A DNA stretch of 64,000 nucleotides from a virus (IMGVR_UViG_2541047715_000004); one strand, 5' to 3'; counted from the first letter of the stretch, positions 4,009-42,377 are shown. Notes: generated by a model from the letters alone, not told the origin. Translations and numbers: made by a program.

Positions 4009-4058
4009 ATCGCAATTATCTTATTAAGAAAACAATTTGTTTAAAAGGATAAGAAAAC

Positions 4059-35361: not shown

Positions 35362-35751
35362 ATGGGCTTCCCTTCTCCTGCGGCGGATTATGCTGAGAGC
35401 CGTATTTCTCTTGATCAGCAGATAATTAGACATCCTTCAGCGACCTACTTCATGAGGGCAGCTGATAGTCATCATCGTGAGGGAATATTACAGGGTGCAT
35501 TGCTGGTGGTCGATTCCTCACTTACCCCGGTTGATGGTTCTCTGCTTGTATGCGCTCTGGATGGGGAATATCGCGTAAAAAGATACCGGAAGTACCCACG
35601 TCAGCATCTGGAGGATTTAAGAACCGGTAAGAAGGAAGCATTGCCAAAGGATGACGATGGATGCACGGGCAGCAATGCCGTGTTTGGTGTGATCACTCAC
35701 ATTATCAACGACGCAAGAAGTGGCGAGTTTGATGATTGTCCCGTGATGTAG
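35362..35751 (+). CDS. UmuD'/HumD-like S24 peptidase-fold protein lacking the N-terminal arm
   Basis: Begins MGFPSPAADYAE, equivalent to E. coli UmuD residues right after the Cys24-Gly25 autocleavage site; no umuC partner follows. Confidence 0.65.
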   Translation: MGFPSPAADYAESRISLDQQIIRHPSATYFMRAADSHHREGILQGALLVVDSSLTPVDGSLLVCALDGEYRVKRYRKYPRQHLEDLRTGKKEALPKDDDGCTGSNAVFGVITHIINDARSGEFDDCPVM

Positions 35752-35762
35752 GAGAACTGATT

Positions 35763-35788
35763 AGGCGGTGCAATGCACCGCCTTTTAT
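35763..35788. terminator. bidirectional terminator hairpin
   Basis: Hairpin aggcggtgc-aat-gcaccgcct with T-run, between convergent umuD-like and mrp genes. Confidence 0.55.
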
Positions 35789-36888
35789 CACACTGCGCGG
35801 AATGCGATTTCGCCAGGTATTACTTCACCTTGCCAATACATTTGGGCGGCAACGCGATCTGCGAGGTCACGATAAATAGCCGTAAATTCGCTATCTGGAC
35901 GACTAATAACGGTTGGTGTTCCGTTATCCAGATCTTCACGAAGAGAGATATGAAGTGGCATTTGGCCTAACAACTGCGTGTTGTATTTCTCGGCCAGTTT
36001 CTGTGCGCCACCGGTGCCAAAAATTGGCTCGTGATGACCGCAGTTACTGCAAATATGCACACTCATGTTTTCGACGATACCCAGTACCGGCACTTCGACT
36101 TTTTCGAACATCACAATGCCTTTCTTCGCATCGATCAGCGCGATGTCTTGCGGCGTAGTTACCACAACCGCACCAGTTACAGGAATGTTCTGCGCCAGCG
36201 TCAACTGAATATCACCAGTGCCCGGCGGCATATCGAGAACGAGATAGTCCAGATCAGGCCATAGAGTTTCCTGCAACATCTGCATCAGCGCCTTGCTGGC
36301 CATCGGTCCACGCCACACCATTGCATTGTCGTCGGTGACCAGATAACCAATAGAGTTGGTTGCCAGGCCATGAGACATGATAGGTGCCATGTGAGTACCG
36401 TCAGGTGAGGTTGGACGTTGGTTTTCCGCGCCCAGCATGGTTGGAATTGATGGACCATAGATATCGGCATCCAAAATACCAACTTTCGCACCTTCAGCAG
36501 CCAACGCCAGTGCCAGGTTTACCGCCGTGGAGGATTTACCCACGCCGCCCTTGCCTGAGCTGACGGCGATAATGTTCTTAACGCCATTAATGCCTGGTTG
36601 GTTTTTGACGCGCTTAAGCGTGGCAATGTTGTACGACAGCTTCCAGTCAATAGCCTTTGCGCCAGTGATACGGAGCAGATCACCACTACATTGCTCTTTC
36701 AGGTCTTCAAAAGGCTTATTCCACACGAAAGGCATGATTAGTTCGACATGCAGTGTGTCATCCATCAACGCAACATGGTGTAACGCTTTAAGCGTAGTCA
36801 GGTTGTGTTTCAGGGTTGGGTGCTGAAAATTAGCCAGCGTACCGGCTACCATTGCTCTCAGGGCATCCGGCGATTTGGACTCGCTCAT
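35788..36888 (-). CDS. apbC: iron-sulfur cluster carrier ATPase Mrp/ApbC
   Basis: Deviant Walker A SGKGGVGKSS, CxxC motif ICSNCGHH; divergent from metG as in E. coli. Confidence 0.9.
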   Translation of the reverse strand: MSESKSPDALRAMVAGTLANFQHPTLKHNLTTLKALHHVALMDDTLHVELIMPFVWNKPFEDLKEQCSGDLLRITGAKAIDWKLSYNIATLKRVKNQPGINGVKNIIAVSSGKGGVGKSSTAVNLALALAAEGAKVGILDADIYGPSIPTMLGAENQRPTSPDGTHMAPIMSHGLATNSIGYLVTDDNAMVWRGPMASKALMQMLQETLWPDLDYLVLDMPPGTGDIQLTLAQNIPVTGAVVVTTPQDIALIDAKKGIVMFEKVEVPVLGIVENMSVHICSNCGHHEPIFGTGGAQKLAEKYNTQLLGQMPLHISLREDLDNGTPTVISRPDSEFTAIYRDLADRVAAQMYWQGEVIPGEIAFRAV

Positions 36889-37045
36889 CCCGTCTCCTTT
36901 ATTTTAATTTGCGCAATTGTCGCCTTGTAGTGTACTCCAGCTACGACATTTAATCATTTATGAGAAATGCTGTTATCACATGGCAGACATAAGGCCATTT
37001 TGTTACTATCAAGCCCCTTTTCACTACAAAGAAGTAATGCCTACT

Positions 37046-39079
37046 ATGACCCAAGTCGCGAAGAAAATTCTGGTGACGTGCGCGCTGCCGTACGCTAACG
37101 GCTCAATCCACCTCGGCCATATGCTGGAGCACATCCAGGCTGATGTCTGGGTTCGTTACCAGCGAATGCGCGGCCACGAGGTTAATTTCATCTGTGCCGA
37201 CGATGCCCACGGTACGCCGATCATGCTGAAAGCACAGCAGCTTGGTATCACACCGGAGCAGATGATTGGCGAAATGAGTCAGGAACACCAGACTGATTTC
37301 GCAGGCTTTAACATCAGCTATGACAACTATCACTCGACGCACAGCGAAGAGAACCGCCAGCTGTCTGAGCTTATCTATACTCGCCTGAAAGAGAACGGTT
37401 TTATTAAAAACCGCACTATCTCTCAGTTGTACGACCCGGAAAAAGGCATGTTCCTGCCGGATCGTTTTGTGAAAGGCACCTGCCCGAAATGTAAAGCGCC
37501 AGATCAATACGGCGATAACTGTGAAGTCTGCGGCGCAACATATAGCCCGACTGAATTGATCGAGCCGAAATCGGTGGTTTCTGGCGCTACCCCGGTAATG
37601 CGTGATTCCGAACACTTCTTCTTTGATCTGCCTTCTTTCAGCGAAATGTTGCAGGCATGGACCCGCAGCGGCGCGTTGCAGGAGCAGGTGGCGAACAAAA
37701 TGCAGGAATGGTTTGAATCCGGCCTGCAACAGTGGGATATCTCCCGAGATGCGCCTTACTTCGGTTTTGAAATTCCGAACGCGCCGGGCAAATATTTCTA
37801 CGTCTGGCTGGACGCGCCGATTGGCTACATGGGTTCCTTCAAGAATCTGTGCGACAAACGCGGCGACACTACCAGCTTCGACGAATACTGGAAGAAAGAC
37901 TCCACCGCCGAGCTGTACCACTTCATCGGTAAAGATATCGTTTACTTCCACAGCCTGTTCTGGCCTGCCATGCTGGAAGGCAGCAACTTCCGCAAGCCGA
38001 CCAACCTGTTTGTTCACGGCTATGTGACGGTGAACGGCGCGAAGATGTCCAAGTCTCGCGGCACCTTTATTAAAGCCAGCACCTGGCTGAATCATTTTGA
38101 CGCCGACAGCCTGCGTTACTACTACACTGCGAAACTCTCTTCGCGCATTGATGATATCGATCTCAACCTGGAAGATTTTGTTCAGCGCGTGAATGCCGAT
38201 ATCGTGAACAAAGTGGTTAACCTGGCCTCCCGTAATGCAGGTTTTATCAACAAACGTTTTGACGGCGTGCTGGCAAGCGAACTGGCTGACCCGCAACTGT
38301 ACAAAACCTTCACTGATGCCGCTGAAGTGATTGGTGAAGCGTGGGAAAGCCGCGAATTTGGCAAAGCTATCCGTGAAATCATGTCACTGGCTGACCTGGC
38401 TAACCGCTATGTTGATGAACAGGCTCCGTGGGTGGTGGCGAAGCAGGAAGGCCGCGATGCCGACCTGCAGGCGATTTGCTCTATGGGCATTAACCTGTTC
38501 CGCGTGCTGATGACGTACCTGAAACCGGTACTGCCGAAACTGACTGAACGTGCAGAAGCATTCCTGAATACAGAACTGACCTGGGATGGTATCCAGCAAC
38601 CGCTGCTGGGCCATAAAGTGAATCCGTTCAAGGCACTGTATAACCGTATCGATATGAAACAGGTGGAAGCACTGGTGGAAGCATCCAAAGAAGAAGTGAA
38701 AGCCACAGCTGCACAGGTAACTGGCCCACTGGCTGACGACCCGATTCAGGAAACCATCACCTTTGACGACTTCGCCAAAGTTGACCTGCGTGTGGCGCTG
38801 ATTGAAAACGCGGAGTTTGTCGAAGGTTCTGACAAACTGCTGCGTCTGACACTGGATCTCGGTGGTGAAAAGCGTAATGTCTTCTCAGGCATCCGTTCTG
38901 CTTATCCAGACCCACAGGCACTGATTGGTCGTCACACCATTATGGTGGCTAACCTGGCTCCGCGTAAAATGCGCTTCGGTATCTCCGAAGGCATGGTGAT
39001 GGCTGCTGGCCCCGGCGGGAAAGATATCTTCCTGTTAAGCCCGGATGCTGGTGCTAAACCAGGCCACCAGGTTAAGTAA
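37046..39079 (+). CDS. metG: methionyl-tRNA synthetase
   Basis: 677 aa, near-identical in pattern to E. coli MetG (HIGH motif [13 protein letters not shown], zinc knuckles CPKC...CEVC); true start ATG 37046 inside the longer listed ORF. Confidence 0.95.
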
Positions 39080-39240: not shown

Positions 39241-39540
39241 ATGTTGAACATTACCCAAGCCTACCAGGTGGCATTGATCAGTTCATCTCATACATCAGAG
39301 GAAGATGCTCGCCGATTCATGATCGCAAGCAATGAGCTGGATTGGGTTTCACAAATTGATGGCGGTTGTATTGTCCACGCCGGGTTACAGGATGATGTCT
39401 GGAAAGATGACTTGCGTCGATATGGTATATCCGAAGGCGCGATTGCTAACATTCAGAAAGTACTTGATGTAGGCTTTGACTCTGTACATTTTGATTGTGG
39501 TGCACCGGTCGTTGAAGGGCTAGAGTGCTGGCAATGGTAA
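39241..39540 (+). CDS. hypothetical protein
   Basis: 99-aa ORF preceded by two GAAAACAA(n)TTGTTT motifs. Confidence 0.45.
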   Translation: MLNITQAYQVALISSSHTSEEDARRFMIASNELDWVSQIDGGCIVHAGLQDDVWKDDLRRYGISEGAIANIQKVLDVGFDSVHFDCGAPVVEGLECWQW

Positions 39541-39576: not shown

Positions 39577-39762
39577 ATGCTTAAAGAAGACTCATATCTA
39601 CTAAAGGCGCTTGAAATGCGTGGCGTTGAACCTACAGTGAAAAACGCTCACGATATCTACCTTCAGTTTTCACCGGAGCTGAAACGGCTCATAAATCAAT
39701 ACGGGGTTAATGACTCAAGTGTTAAAGCAATGATAGATGATGAATTAGACCATCTCATCTAA
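39577..39762 (+). CDS. hypothetical protein
   Basis: 61-aa ORF with RBS. Confidence 0.35.
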   Translation: MLKEDSYLLKALEMRGVEPTVKNAHDIYLQFSPELKRLINQYGVNDSSVKAMIDDELDHLI

Positions 39763-39914: not shown

Positions 39915-40484
39915 ATGGATGTGATGGAAACCCAGAACCAACAAACAAAACCTCTGAATAACATTTATGCGTGGATTCTAGCGTTCATGCCTTTCTTCTT
40001 TGGAGTATCGCCGGAAGAGTATACCAATTACGCTATTATAATTGGGGGTGTAACTACCATCGGTTTGTTAGTAGCTGACAGAATGGCTCTATCGGAGTCT
40101 GGCTGTGAACCACCTTCAATTCTATGGGGGGTATTCCTCCTGCCTGTCTATCTCTGGAAGCGCGCGACTATTACAAAAGGCAGCAGAGTGCCATTTATCA
40201 TAATCGTTGCGTCGCTGGCTTGGATTATCTTCATCGGCATCCCACACAAGGACGAGGTTGCTCTTGAAGAAGCAGCCTGCCCTCTCGTGACAACTATTCT
40301 GAAAGAGAATAACGGTTCGACTGCACCAAAATGTATGAAGGTGACAATAGAGGACAAGGTGACGGATAAGTTCTATAGAGCAACGGCTACACTAGACAAT
40401 GGTAATGACATTAACATTACTCTGGAACTTACCGGCGACAGGAACTTCTACGTCCGTGTTCCAAATGTTTATCTGAACAACTAA
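39915..40484 (+). CDS. hypothetical membrane protein
   Basis: Several hydrophobic segments; exact start uncertain. Confidence 0.4.
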   Translation: MDVMETQNQQTKPLNNIYAWILAFMPFFFGVSPEEYTNYAIIIGGVTTIGLLVADRMALSESGCEPPSILWGVFLLPVYLWKRATITKGSRVPFIIIVASLAWIIFIGIPHKDEVALEEAACPLVTTILKENNGSTAPKCMKVTIEDKVTDKFYRATATLDNGNDINITLELTGDRNFYVRVPNVYLNN

Positions 40485-40699
40485 CGGTTGTAACTTATTG
40501 ATAATGGCGGTCACAATTTGATTCTTTTCTATAAGAATCCGTTGATCGCCACTACTCCCCTACCATGCCCGCAATCACATCCTTAAATATCAATAAGTTA
40601 TAGTTGTTTATACAATCAAGAAAACAACTGAATAACAGATCAACGAAACATCAACGCTTTCACCCGATTTGGTCTAAAAAATTGACGTTTTCACACATC

Positions 40700-41340
40700 A
40701 CTGCTTATACCCGTAATTCTACACAGCAGACAGCGCCACAGCGTCCAATTTTCACCACAGACGACCCAACACACTACCAACAAAAACACATGCTCAAAAT
40801 CGTTCCCGTTGCGTTACATAACCATATAAACAACTTATTTTCAGGCATAACAAAACAACTAAATAACACATATGCCATTCCCAAAACAACCAACCTCGTT
40901 ATGGCAGGCTACCGAAAAGACCCACCTCTTCTTCCCAGGCTACCGGACAACCAACCTAACTTTCACAGGCAATCCGAAAACATTCATACGCGCGATACCC
41001 ACGACACGCCATTACCCAAACAGCGAAGAAACACCAGAATCACTGAAACCCCAACGAAGCCTGTAACCGCAAGGTTTCTCTCAATCCCAAAAGACACGAA
41101 GCATAACAATCACGGGAAACGCCATTACCCAATACACGAATAACTACAAAAGCCTTTCACACACTCCAGACAAACAACTCAAACACAATAACGAAAGGAA
41201 TCGCCCACCTGCCATTACTCCATACACGGAGAAGAACAATCACCAAAACGACGAGAACACCCCATAGAAGAACCACCGCAAAACTAACGAAACCACATAC
41301 ACCGACAGAGAAAACAACACACCCAATTCACCAACAGAAA
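40700..41340 (+). other. C+A-rich, G- and T-depleted tract (approximate bounds)
   Basis: Long runs such as caccacagacgacccaacacactaccaacaaaaacaca; ORF 40604-41143 translates to low-complexity T/P/N/K/H/Q-rich sequence. Confidence 0.6.
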
Positions 41341-41467
41341 TAGTCGCCGTATAGAACGTTCTGGAAGGAGTGAGCATTAACGCCTATAGAGAGGTTGAGA
41401 CAGATAAAACACGAAGAAAACACAACATGTATAGCGAAGAAGCCAGGTATGTATAAGTGGGGAGGGA

Positions 41468-41490
41468 AGGAGGGGTGTCGCCTCCTTTTT
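41468..41490 (+). terminator. putative terminator after CA-rich tract
   Basis: Hairpin ggagg-ggtgtcg-cctcc followed by TTTTT. Confidence 0.4.
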
Positions 41491-41553
41491 CGTATTTATT
41501 CAACTCCTGATTTTATCCCCCGTAAAACCCCTACGGTCAGCCTTCGGTCCATA

Positions 41554-41700
41554 CAGGGAAAAGGTTGCATCCCGCTACAGAAACGGCTGGGTTGCCTTCG
41601 GGGAACGGCTGGAGGTTTTCAGGGAAACGGTCGAGTTGCCTGTGTGGATTTCGGGAGAAGGCTCGATGCCGGTTCAGGAACGGTGGAGTACCGGTATAGC
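41554..41700. repeat. array of GGGAAACGG-like repeats at about 22-25 bp spacing
   Basis: cagggaaaagg, cagaaacggctgg, ggggaacggctgg, gggaaacggtcg, gggagaaggctcg, ggaacggtgg. Confidence 0.55.
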
Positions 41701-42047
41701 GAGAGGGAGAGTTGCGGCTATCCACCTGTAATCTGCGGGAAGAAGAGTGGCGCTCACGTGCAGGCGGACTAACTTACCGTTGGACTCCCTCTGAATGCCC
41801 AGTTACAGCGTAATTGTGCCAGACAGCCAACGGGTCACAATCGATTTCAGTAGGTTTTCGGGGAGATGATTATTCTGCCCACCAGCCACCTTCGGCCACT
41901 AAATCAGAATAATGTAAAAAGTGTTCTCGGTACTGAACCTGAAAACTCACTGCCAAAACCACATTCACCGGAATAAAATCCTTTTTCGCCTGTGCGTTAT
42001 TGCGATAATAACACCATCAAGAAAACATGTTGTTTAAGGATTGCTTT

Positions 42048-42377
42048 ATGTTTGCAAATATCGACATCAACCAAATCAAGAAATTGACTCAAAAAGAGTT
42101 TGACCAGTTCTATGAGCTGGAAGGTTGGTCTTCCACTCTGATCAATTCGCGGTGGGTGCTTGAGCTGATGACTCGTGATGACGCACCTGCTTTGATGATT
42201 TGCGACATGGGTGAAGATGCTGACTTTATGGATATGAGCGAATTTTGTGTGGACACATACAACCGCAGCCAGAAGTACTACTTCACATGCGATAGCGAGA
42301 ATGACGTGATTTCTAAGGTCTATCTTCACCTTGTCCAGCATTGGGACGTTCAGGAGTTTCTTGAAGTATTCGAGTAA
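42048..42377 (+). CDS. hypothetical protein
   Basis: Start taken at second ATG (MFANIDINQ); first ATG lies inside the upstream motif. Confidence 0.45.
   Translation: MFANIDINQIKKLTQKEFDQFYELEGWSSTLINSRWVLELMTRDDAPALMICDMGEDADFMDMSEFCVDTYNRSQKYYFTCDSENDVISKVYLHLVQHWDVQEFLEVFE

Follow-up and report, generated by a model that had tools for sequence, protein, structure and literature searches.

A conserved, non-coding C+A-rich tract in SSU5-like phage-plasmids and its possible role as a transcriptional insulator

The DNA considered here (IMGVR_UViG_2541047715_000004; 64,000 nucleotides, hereafter the window, to which all coordinates refer) is that of an SSU5-like phage-plasmid. Our subject is a tract of extreme base composition, rich in C and A, that forms the non-coding centre of an intergenic module of ~1.5 kb (about 40,506-42,035), a core feature of these elements. 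On its 5′ side the module borders host-derived apbC-metG together with other cargo, and on its 3′ side five small + strand genes of no known function; searches of the neighbouring proteins against Pfam, PHROGs and NCBIfam revealed no known function and PADLOC returned nothing. The upstream flank consists of variable cargo in every genome compared. The downstream flank is conserved, with the genes directly adjoining the module varying between clades. Terminase genes lie ~12 kb downstream of the tract and the RepB plasmid origin, which is unrelated to it, ~44 kb away. The element also encodes its own replisome (DnaE, a DnaB-like helicase, ligase, RNase HI and a 5′-3′ exonuclease).

The module is widespread. 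Of 5,426 complete E. coli genomes, 243 have a match to a segment of 1.4 kb around the tract, in plasmids of 100-120 kb and in no chromosome; the segment was also matched in the phages Cyrano, PhiR41_1 and SSU5 and in several Klebsiella phages. Within PLSDB, 836 plasmids possess a matching module with the tract at the same place (Klebsiella 428, Escherichia 224, Enterobacter 90, Salmonella 49, Citrobacter 25, Cronobacter 9, and others). Scans of viral contigs with two patterns brought up the same three clades and nothing beyond, and a search for distant relatives found the downstream 103-aa protein restricted to the SSU5-like family at ≥58% identity. The tract is almost never annotated: ~1.56 kb of the best-matching plasmid is left featureless by the NCBI pipeline (PGAP), and the open reading frames (ORFs) placed over the tract by depositors vary in position and strand between genomes. 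Within the sources that could be searched, the region is not described in the literature and no lytic-phase transcriptome of the SSU5-like family was found.

Base composition over 40600-41500 is A.388, C.282, G.152 and T.178, becoming A.413, C.327, G.119 and T.141 in the best-scoring C+A segment (40753-41340). In 300-nt windows C+A peaks at 0.763 against a window mean of 0.497 (standard deviation (sd) 0.04, thus ~6.6 sd), and no other stretch of the 64 kb exceeds 0.66; in the closest complete plasmid (~115 kb) C+A elsewhere is ≤0.64. Over the tract the GC skew falls to -0.46 and the AT skew rises to +0.53. When uninterrupted stretches of C>G skew ("bubbles") were delimited on a 78-nt scale, that at 40475-41393 (919 nt, mean C-G 0.18) was the longest of 2,711 on both strands, with an integrated skew 2.8 times that of the next. 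The C of the tract resides mostly in the context ACA, a triplet present at 68 per kb versus 16 per kb. An earlier note on this DNA had described a C+A-rich, G/T-depleted tract and proposed its verification by sliding windows of composition and skew; our windows agree with that description, the bounds given by the bubble being slightly wider.

As judged by comparison of 11 aligned genomes, comprising an E. coli clade, a Salmonella/Enterobacter/Citrobacter clade and a Klebsiella clade, the tract is non-coding. The ORF at 40604-41143 to which the earlier note had drawn attention does exist (TTG start, 179 aa, rich in T/P/N/K/H/Q), and its doubt that this was a real protein was well placed: phage Cyrano, whose nucleotide identity is 98%, already shows it split, and not one ORF of either strand is common to the 11 genomes in position, frame and strand. 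Indels between clades are not multiples of three, and all three + frames contain 2-14 stops in every genome. Long ORFs occur in the tract because the depletion of T and G removes stop codons. That this or another ORF encodes an unusual low-complexity or disordered protein, an option the earlier note had kept in view, is barely credible: the presence of the 179-aa ORF and the annotation of ORFs by some depositors speak for it, but the former is not conserved, the latter disagree with one another in position and strand, and PGAP annotates none here.

The tract is nevertheless conserved. All 11 aligned genomes keep C+A at 0.67-0.71 although identity between the three clades is only 61-71%, and A and C are exchanged more often between clades than any other pair of bases. 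For comparison, identity between the same genomes at near-neutral third codon positions is 36-57% in three neighbouring genes. Change in the tract is therefore slower than at these positions, and on this comparison the tract is under selection. All 34 further viral contigs with downstream sequence available keep the tract (C+A 0.63-0.74), followed by a G-rich stretch. Comparative genomics, which the earlier note had suggested as a check, thus shows the tract to be no accident. A functionless tract, be it the remains of a gene or an accident of composition that mutation bias upholds, is very improbable. The persistence of truncated remnants in large Klebsiella plasmids would suit such an account, but the boundaries are sharp, conserved islands are present, three clades in which neutral sites have almost reached saturation have the same composition, the tract is retained in all of the viral contigs above, and diversity within clades is as low as in the putative regulatory block described below and lower than in the variable segment 3′ of the repeats.

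Several rearranged copies were encountered. Mosaic E. coli elements (L007 = CP088502.1, L037 and L063, compared over 40880-41340) carry Salmonella-type flanks around an E. coli-type central C+A segment, from which it follows that recombination occurs inside the tract. The tract of the Kluyvera plasmid pSCW13-2 (L013, 3773-4884), otherwise an intact phage-plasmid, is interrupted by an IS3 element. The large Klebsiella plasmids (L014, L018 and L019), of 130-270 kb and IncFIB/IncHI1B type, retain the first ~100-450 nt of the module only, cut by Tn3 or IS3; being transposon-truncated, these remnants were uninformative as comparison material.

The module contains considerably more than the tract (Table 1). 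The earlier note had given the tract, the ORF and a terminator-like hairpin, an account that holds as far as it goes; it had missed the upstream block, the inner motifs and an array of 22-bp repeats.

Table 1 Features of the intergenic module (window coordinates)
Feature	Position	Strand	Basis or remark
Left-boundary hairpin	40506..40550	+	Outer stem GGCGGTCA/TGATCGCC, inner stem GATTCTT/AAGAATC, without U-run
Conserved block, putatively regulatory	40618..40711	+	80-83% identity between clades
C+A-rich, G/T-depleted core, non-coding	40716..41345	+	Composition, no conserved ORF, folding
Palindrome-like site TATAAACAACTTATTTT (AAACAAnTTGTTT in other clades), then second AAGAAAACAA..ATAACAC copy	40825..40871		Conserved island
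Motif GCCATTAC(Y)(Y)(M)ATAYRCGRAGAAGAAC, four dispersed copies	40874, 41008, 41121, 41211 (span 40874..41243)	+	Motif count
Three tandem 31-nt units (..ACCCACCTCTT..CAGGCTACCG..)	40881..40972	+	Repeat analysis
Conserved box TCGCCGTATAGAACG, 3′ end of tract	41344..41358		Conservation
G-cluster (GGGGAGGGAAGGAGGGG) forming hairpin, then T-run	41459..41494	+	Terminator-like
Array of six ~22-bp repeats, core G(G)AAA(A/C)GG(C)TGG	41551..41700		Spacings 23, 22, 22, 30, 23 bp
Hairpin ATTATTCTG...CAGAATAAT, loop carrying complement of Chi (CCACCAGC, 41879-41886)	41869..41913		Within variable piece
Putative promoter/operator of downstream gene (TTATTGCGATAATAACACCATCAAGAAAACATGTTGTTT), right edge of non-coding module	41997..42035	+	Conservation

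The left-boundary hairpin is predicted at -13 to -19 kcal/mol in 8 of the 11 genomes and is lost where the upstream flank was replaced. Its inner stem differs by clade yet pairs on the + strand by means of G.U, which on the - strand would be A.C mismatches. Pairing kept by way of G.U on the + strand alone is found in this hairpin and in one motif hairpin, which hints that the tract is transcribed as + strand RNA. A short C-rich variable piece separates the hairpin from the conserved block, whose identity between clades is like that of the first and second codon positions of the neighbouring genes. The block contains AAGAAAACAA (half a copy of a dispersed palindrome), the heptamers (A/G)TCAACG at 40639 and 40650, and GATTTGGTCT. 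It ends in a promoter-like pair, a -35-like TTGACG (40682-40687) and a -10-like TATACC (40706-40711) separated by an 18-nt spacer; the latter lacks the usual final T and was hence missed by a consensus promoter scan. The arrangement suggests that the block may act as a promoter.

The palindrome-like site proper occupies 40825-40841, and the 40825-40871 site is 87% identical to 40618-40640 (repeat family D5). These two places, 40618 and 40825-40871, are partial copies of the dispersed palindrome. The palindrome itself, AAGAAAACAAnTTGTTT, recurs in the window at 4026, 25694, 26419, 39164, 39211, 42019, 42507, 44170 and 53061, and was also found at ~34.05 kb in NZ_CP062914.1 (L016). Where 0.48 copies of the 10-mer would be expected there are 6, and the core palindrome is present at 7 sites besides the module. 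Many + strand genes, that of a ParA-like ATPase among them, have it 20-35 nt upstream of their ATG and ~9 nt downstream of a -10-like xxxAAT, and it looks like an operator/promoter family, as in P1. The G-rich motif of the array was sought upstream of the ParA-like gene and is absent there.

Two repeated elements lie within the tract. The dispersed motif, of the form GCCATTAC…CGRAGAAGAAC, was matched 3 times versus 0.05 expected by chance; 4-6 copies with variable spacing are present in every clade, and among viral contigs it was found in the SSU5-like element type only. The 31-nt units number 2 to 4 across 45 genomes, with an extra unit in Citrobacter and in L053.

Downstream of the tract, the hairpin and T-run (41464-41494, +) have a predicted free energy of ~ -20 kcal/mol. 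The terminator likeness noticed earlier is that of a canonical terminator in the E. coli clade only; the U-run is interrupted in Klebsiella, and in the Salmonella/Enterobacter clade the hairpin is weak and without a U-run. The array beyond it was missed by Tandem Repeats Finder, its units being too divergent, and was found by autocorrelation, which gave in four clades a z of 4.1-4.8 at lag 22, accompanied by harmonics at 44 and 66. There are six units (four in Klebsiella), which have only a core of ~9-12 nt in common. The core GAAA[AC]GG occurs 3-5 times versus 0.1-0.2 expected, and nowhere else in the plasmid. By-eye resemblances to ops, boxA, Ter, KOPS and Y-box sequences were rejected as incomplete or not conserved. 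The hairpin whose loop carries the Chi complement is conserved, and its stem has undergone a compensatory change in the E16/Salmonella type (GATATTCTG/CAGAATATC). Chi (GCTGGTGG) is itself present at 13 sites in the 64 kb (13241-55677, including 41879-41886 on the - strand) against ~2 expected by chance.

Some observations concern the flanking DNA. The host-like apbC(mrp)-metG pair (~35600-39079, with a full-length methionyl-tRNA synthetase at 36917-39079) is present as cargo in the E. coli clade only; the same spot elsewhere is occupied by a GIY-YIG nuclease, LprI, ydfZ or insertion sequence elements. The 61-aa ORF at 39577-39762 (+) has a sub-threshold Pfam match to the T7 gp5.9 RecBCD inhibitor (E = 0.005; 17 bits versus a cut-off of 24.5) and its neighbour at 39241-39540 is DUF5983, hinting at an anti-defence flavour of this small-gene cluster. 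A search for tRNA or tmRNA found none.

What kind of RNA would the tract yield? The + strand RNA is predicted to fold at -74.9 kcal/mol over 627 nt (-0.12 kcal/mol per nt), half the -150 kcal/mol of the opposite strand, in keeping with the proposal of the earlier note that a transcript would be largely unstructured. Start codons are almost eliminated, with 4 in 630 nt (6.3 per kb versus 54 per kb in the window), and Shine-Dalgarno-like sites number 2. Between the tract and the G-rich region, pairing over long distances is not stronger than in shuffled sequences. The G-rich region itself has no excess stability over shuffles (z ~0 on both strands) and no consistent helices by RNAalifold; this favours a motif recognised by its sequence, in DNA or in single-stranded RNA, over a folded RNA. 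No Rfam family was found over the whole window at gathering thresholds, and none at E ≤10 over 40,400-42,100.

Expression in the lysogenic state could be read from published RNA-seq of E. coli LF82 carrying Cyrano, in which gene-level values are given for ten samples (S1 table of PMC9928086). These values, reported as log2(FPKM+5), were converted to FPKM (fragments per kilobase per million). The upstream gene CYRAN_102 is expressed at 45-587 FPKM. Conversely, CYRAN_103, which begins 111 nt further on and spans the tract's first 357 nt, is at ~0-14 FPKM in all ten samples, and CYRAN_104, over the hairpin and repeats, is also low. In lysogens, transcription or RNA survival thus breaks off sharply at the module's left edge. 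Between CYRAN_102 and CYRAN_103 no intrinsic terminator is predicted.

These properties lead us to propose, tentatively, that the tract is a Rho-loading transcriptional insulator guarding the 22-bp repeat array. RNA polymerase would enter on the + strand, by read-through from the upstream cargo or from the weak promoter-like block of the module. The RNA of the tract, being nearly without G or U, could not fold, and ribosomes could not load where there is almost no ATG, GTG or TTG and almost no Shine-Dalgarno sequence. The resulting ~0.9 kb of naked RNA, rich in C and poor in G, would be a loading substrate for host Rho, which would end transcription within the tract, the RNA being trimmed back to the left-boundary hairpin; the 3′ hairpin would act as a backup terminator in some clades. 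Lysogenic cargo transcription would in this manner be kept out of the repeat array, where proteins may bind, and out of the conserved small genes downstream. The features of a Rho utilisation (rut) site can be compared with the tract directly. An uninterrupted C>G skew over at least ~78 nt is expected of such a site, and the bubble here extends for 919 nt; the RNA is likewise predicted to be unstructured and untranslated, with the folding energy and start codons given above and no conserved ORF. Among the published descriptors that set Rho-dependent terminators apart are C>G skew, a low G content, little structure and %CA, %AAC, %ACA and %CAC (PMC6144790). The repeat region is itself C>G on the - strand (G.32-.37 on the + strand), so that a signal of this kind would also await transcripts coming in from the right. 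The fall in expression from CYRAN_102 to CYRAN_103, the + strand pairing of the left hairpin and the position between variable and conserved flanks likewise speak for an insulator.

A number of observations weigh against this proposal. The best-defined feature of rut sites is a series of YC dimers spaced 9-13 nt apart, and spaced YC dimers are not enriched in the tract (YC 0.138 versus 0.10-0.12; chains of 5-6 at 0 per kb versus 6.1 and 3.2 per kb in the window). Approximately 100 nt suffices for a rut site, leaving the 0.8 kb of the tract unexplained. Insulation also fails to account for the motif islands, the 4-6 copies of GCCATTAC, the 31-nt units or an identity above the neutral baseline, and a promoter-like block would be an odd thing to place inside an insulator. 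Finally, the RNA-seq is at the level of genes only and would fit repression of a promoter together with RNA instability equally well. It is because the YC dimers are not enriched, the length is excessive and the repeated motifs are unexplained that our confidence falls short of an endorsement.

Two further explanations correspond to entries in the list that the earlier note had offered in place of a single interpretation (non-coding RNA, protein-binding platform, packaging or origin region, disordered protein). The module might be a cis-acting DNA site, most plausibly the lytic replication origin. The six 22-bp repeats would then serve an initiator as iterons, and regulated transcription through the tract would activate or prime the origin, possibly by way of an R-loop at the G-cluster that is processed by the element's own RNase HI. 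Direct repeats of 22 bp (two helical turns), kept in four clades and unique in the plasmid, speak for this account, as do the lack of an RNA structure signal on either strand and the G-cluster just upstream of the array. The element, moreover, has its own replisome but no known lytic origin, and its plasmid origin, with RepB iterons of a different sequence (GTATGCTGCCAGCGGT), lies 44 kb off and is unrelated; the array is therefore not the RepB iterons, a possibility that was considered and rejected. Precedent exists in the RNA-based origins of extrachromosomal mycobacteriophage prophages (PMC7157519), and the tolerance of an IS3 insertion in the Kluyvera plasmid fits a function dispensable for plasmid maintenance. 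Against an origin, there is no adjacent initiator gene (the immediate downstream genes differ between clades), no AT-rich unwinding element (GC 0.49-0.56) and no conserved DnaA box; the search for DnaA and IHF sites beside the array yielded a single DnaA-box-like sequence that is not conserved. The units share only their short core, C+A-rich RNA is not favourable to R-loops, and 0.8 kb of asymmetric composition is left without a purpose. We regard an origin as unlikely, albeit deserving of attention. The plasmid-state origin is, for its part, classical (NZ_CP062914.1; L015 23186-23291, L016 1092-1228): RepB is flanked on both sides by iterons of ~21-23 bp, and the region also holds a DnaA-box-like ATATCCACA and GATC-rich repeats. 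A packaging site, also raised by the earlier note, is improbable with the terminase genes at such a distance.

Alternatively, the tract could encode a trans-acting long non-coding RNA of ~0.8-0.9 kb, made from the conserved promoter-like block on leaving lysogeny and ending at the 3′ hairpin, in which the 4-6 GCCAUUAC…CGGAGAAGAAC motifs and the 2-4 31-nt units serve as multivalent sites that sequester or scaffold a host or phage factor. Candidate partners are an RNA-binding protein, Rho, GU-rich small RNAs (sRNAs) such as GcvB, whose bound targets are of a C/A-rich kind (PMC3879156, PMC4474525), and ACA-specific RNases such as MazF. Repeated conserved motifs in an unstructured context are the known architecture of sponge RNAs, the conservation exceeds the neutral baseline, the promoter-like block and terminator-like end would define a transcription unit, and silence in lysogens is what a lytic-phase RNA would show. 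The AAGAAAACAA palindrome that the tract shares with many gene starts suggests co-regulation, the density of ACA suits an ACA-specific RNase, and pairing with the GcvB R1 seed is predicted at -17.5 kcal/mol versus a background of -13.65. However, the transcript has not been observed nor a partner identified, Rfam gives no match even at E ≤10, the -10-like hexamer lacks its final T, conservation of the terminator does not extend to the Salmonella/Enterobacter clade, and composition-matched shuffles score as high for GGA, (ARN)n, AANAANAA and GcvB complementarity. Individual partners fared accordingly. A CsrA sponge, hinted at by CAGGGAAA-like repeats resembling a segment of CsrB, was rejected, GGA being barely enriched (4-11 versus 5-8.5 expected in the tract, 11-13 versus 8 in the G-rich region, 6 versus 6 in Klebsiella) and the core being GAAA(A/C)GG; membership of the CsrB/CsrC/Rsm families was dismissed on the same counts and the Rfam result. 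A GcvB sponge was rejected, the mean duplex energy of the shuffled tract, at -17.0 kcal/mol, being close to that of the tract itself (the GcvB sequence was verified before this pairing was computed), and so was a CrcZ-like sponge of Hfq/Crc, with A-R-N runs of ≥4 at 0-1 versus 0.8-0.9 expected and AANAANAA at 2-3 versus 1.4-2.4. A trans-acting RNA is thus possible, if on the improbable side. A bolder version, a two-letter C/A RNA of ~0.8 kb serving in the lytic phase as a decoy or sponge in trans for Rho (so relieving the Rho silencing of the phage genome), GcvB-like sRNAs, MazF-like RNases or a GCCAUUAC-binding protein, strikes us as doubtful. Were it true, no counterpart of such an RNA has been described among phages.

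The identity of this module matters beyond the window. Clinical E. coli, Klebsiella, Enterobacter and Salmonella very commonly contain SSU5-like phage-plasmids, which carry resistance and virulence cargo, and here ~1.5 kb of their conserved backbone, apparently under selection, lies unannotated at the border of variable cargo and conserved genes. An insulator, if that is what the tract proves to be, would explain how lysogens express cargo without waking the neighbouring phage genes. A lytic origin or sponge RNA would instead supply a missing piece of the biology of the family and a possible handle for curing or typing. In any case, a tract RNA that can be neither folded nor translated offers an unusually clean natural case of selection acting on base composition rather than on sequence.

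How does the module compare with known systems? It is the downstream array, not the tract, that recalls iteron arrays (the 22-bp iterons of R6K, and those of P1, F and lambda ori), with which it shares phased direct repeats of ~22 bp that are unique in the replicon; here, however, only a short G-rich core is common to the units, and the adjacent rep gene, AT-rich element and DnaA box are missing. With the sponges CsrB/CsrC/RsmZ (CsrA), CrcZ (Hfq/Crc) and AgvB/SroC (GcvB) the tract has in common several copies of a short motif in single-stranded RNA, but it is 3-4 times longer, has no Rfam hit and is not expressed in lysogens. A ToxI-like type III antitoxin was considered and discarded, since likeness among the 31-nt units does not go beyond 65-81%, the hairpin has no ORF after it and PADLOC matched nothing among the neighbours. 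In the immunity systems of P4 and N15, premature Rho-dependent termination is controlled by short repeated RNA sequences. The tract shares a phage-plasmid context and an untranslated leader with P1/P7 c4, P4 CI RNA and N15 CA RNA (PMC3632133), although it is far longer than those leaders and compositionally extreme, and no antirepressor was identified downstream. Nor did we find an Rfam match to C4 or IsrK, or conserved complementary pairs of the kind on which such immunity would depend; one pair, 40898-40908/41208-41218, is not kept outside the E. coli clade. There remain the rut sites, namely rutA/rutB of lambda tR1 and the bubbles of Nadiras et al. 2018 (PMC6144790). Like them, the tract is rich in CA, AAC, ACA and CAC, lies downstream of a stop codon, is followed by a hairpin and coincides with a collapse of the RNA signal; unlike them, it carries conserved repeated motifs and a promoter-like block of its own. 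Although it lacks the enrichment in spaced YC dimers and is some ten times too long, it is a rut site that the tract would most resemble in its working, and this likeness is the closest among the systems compared.

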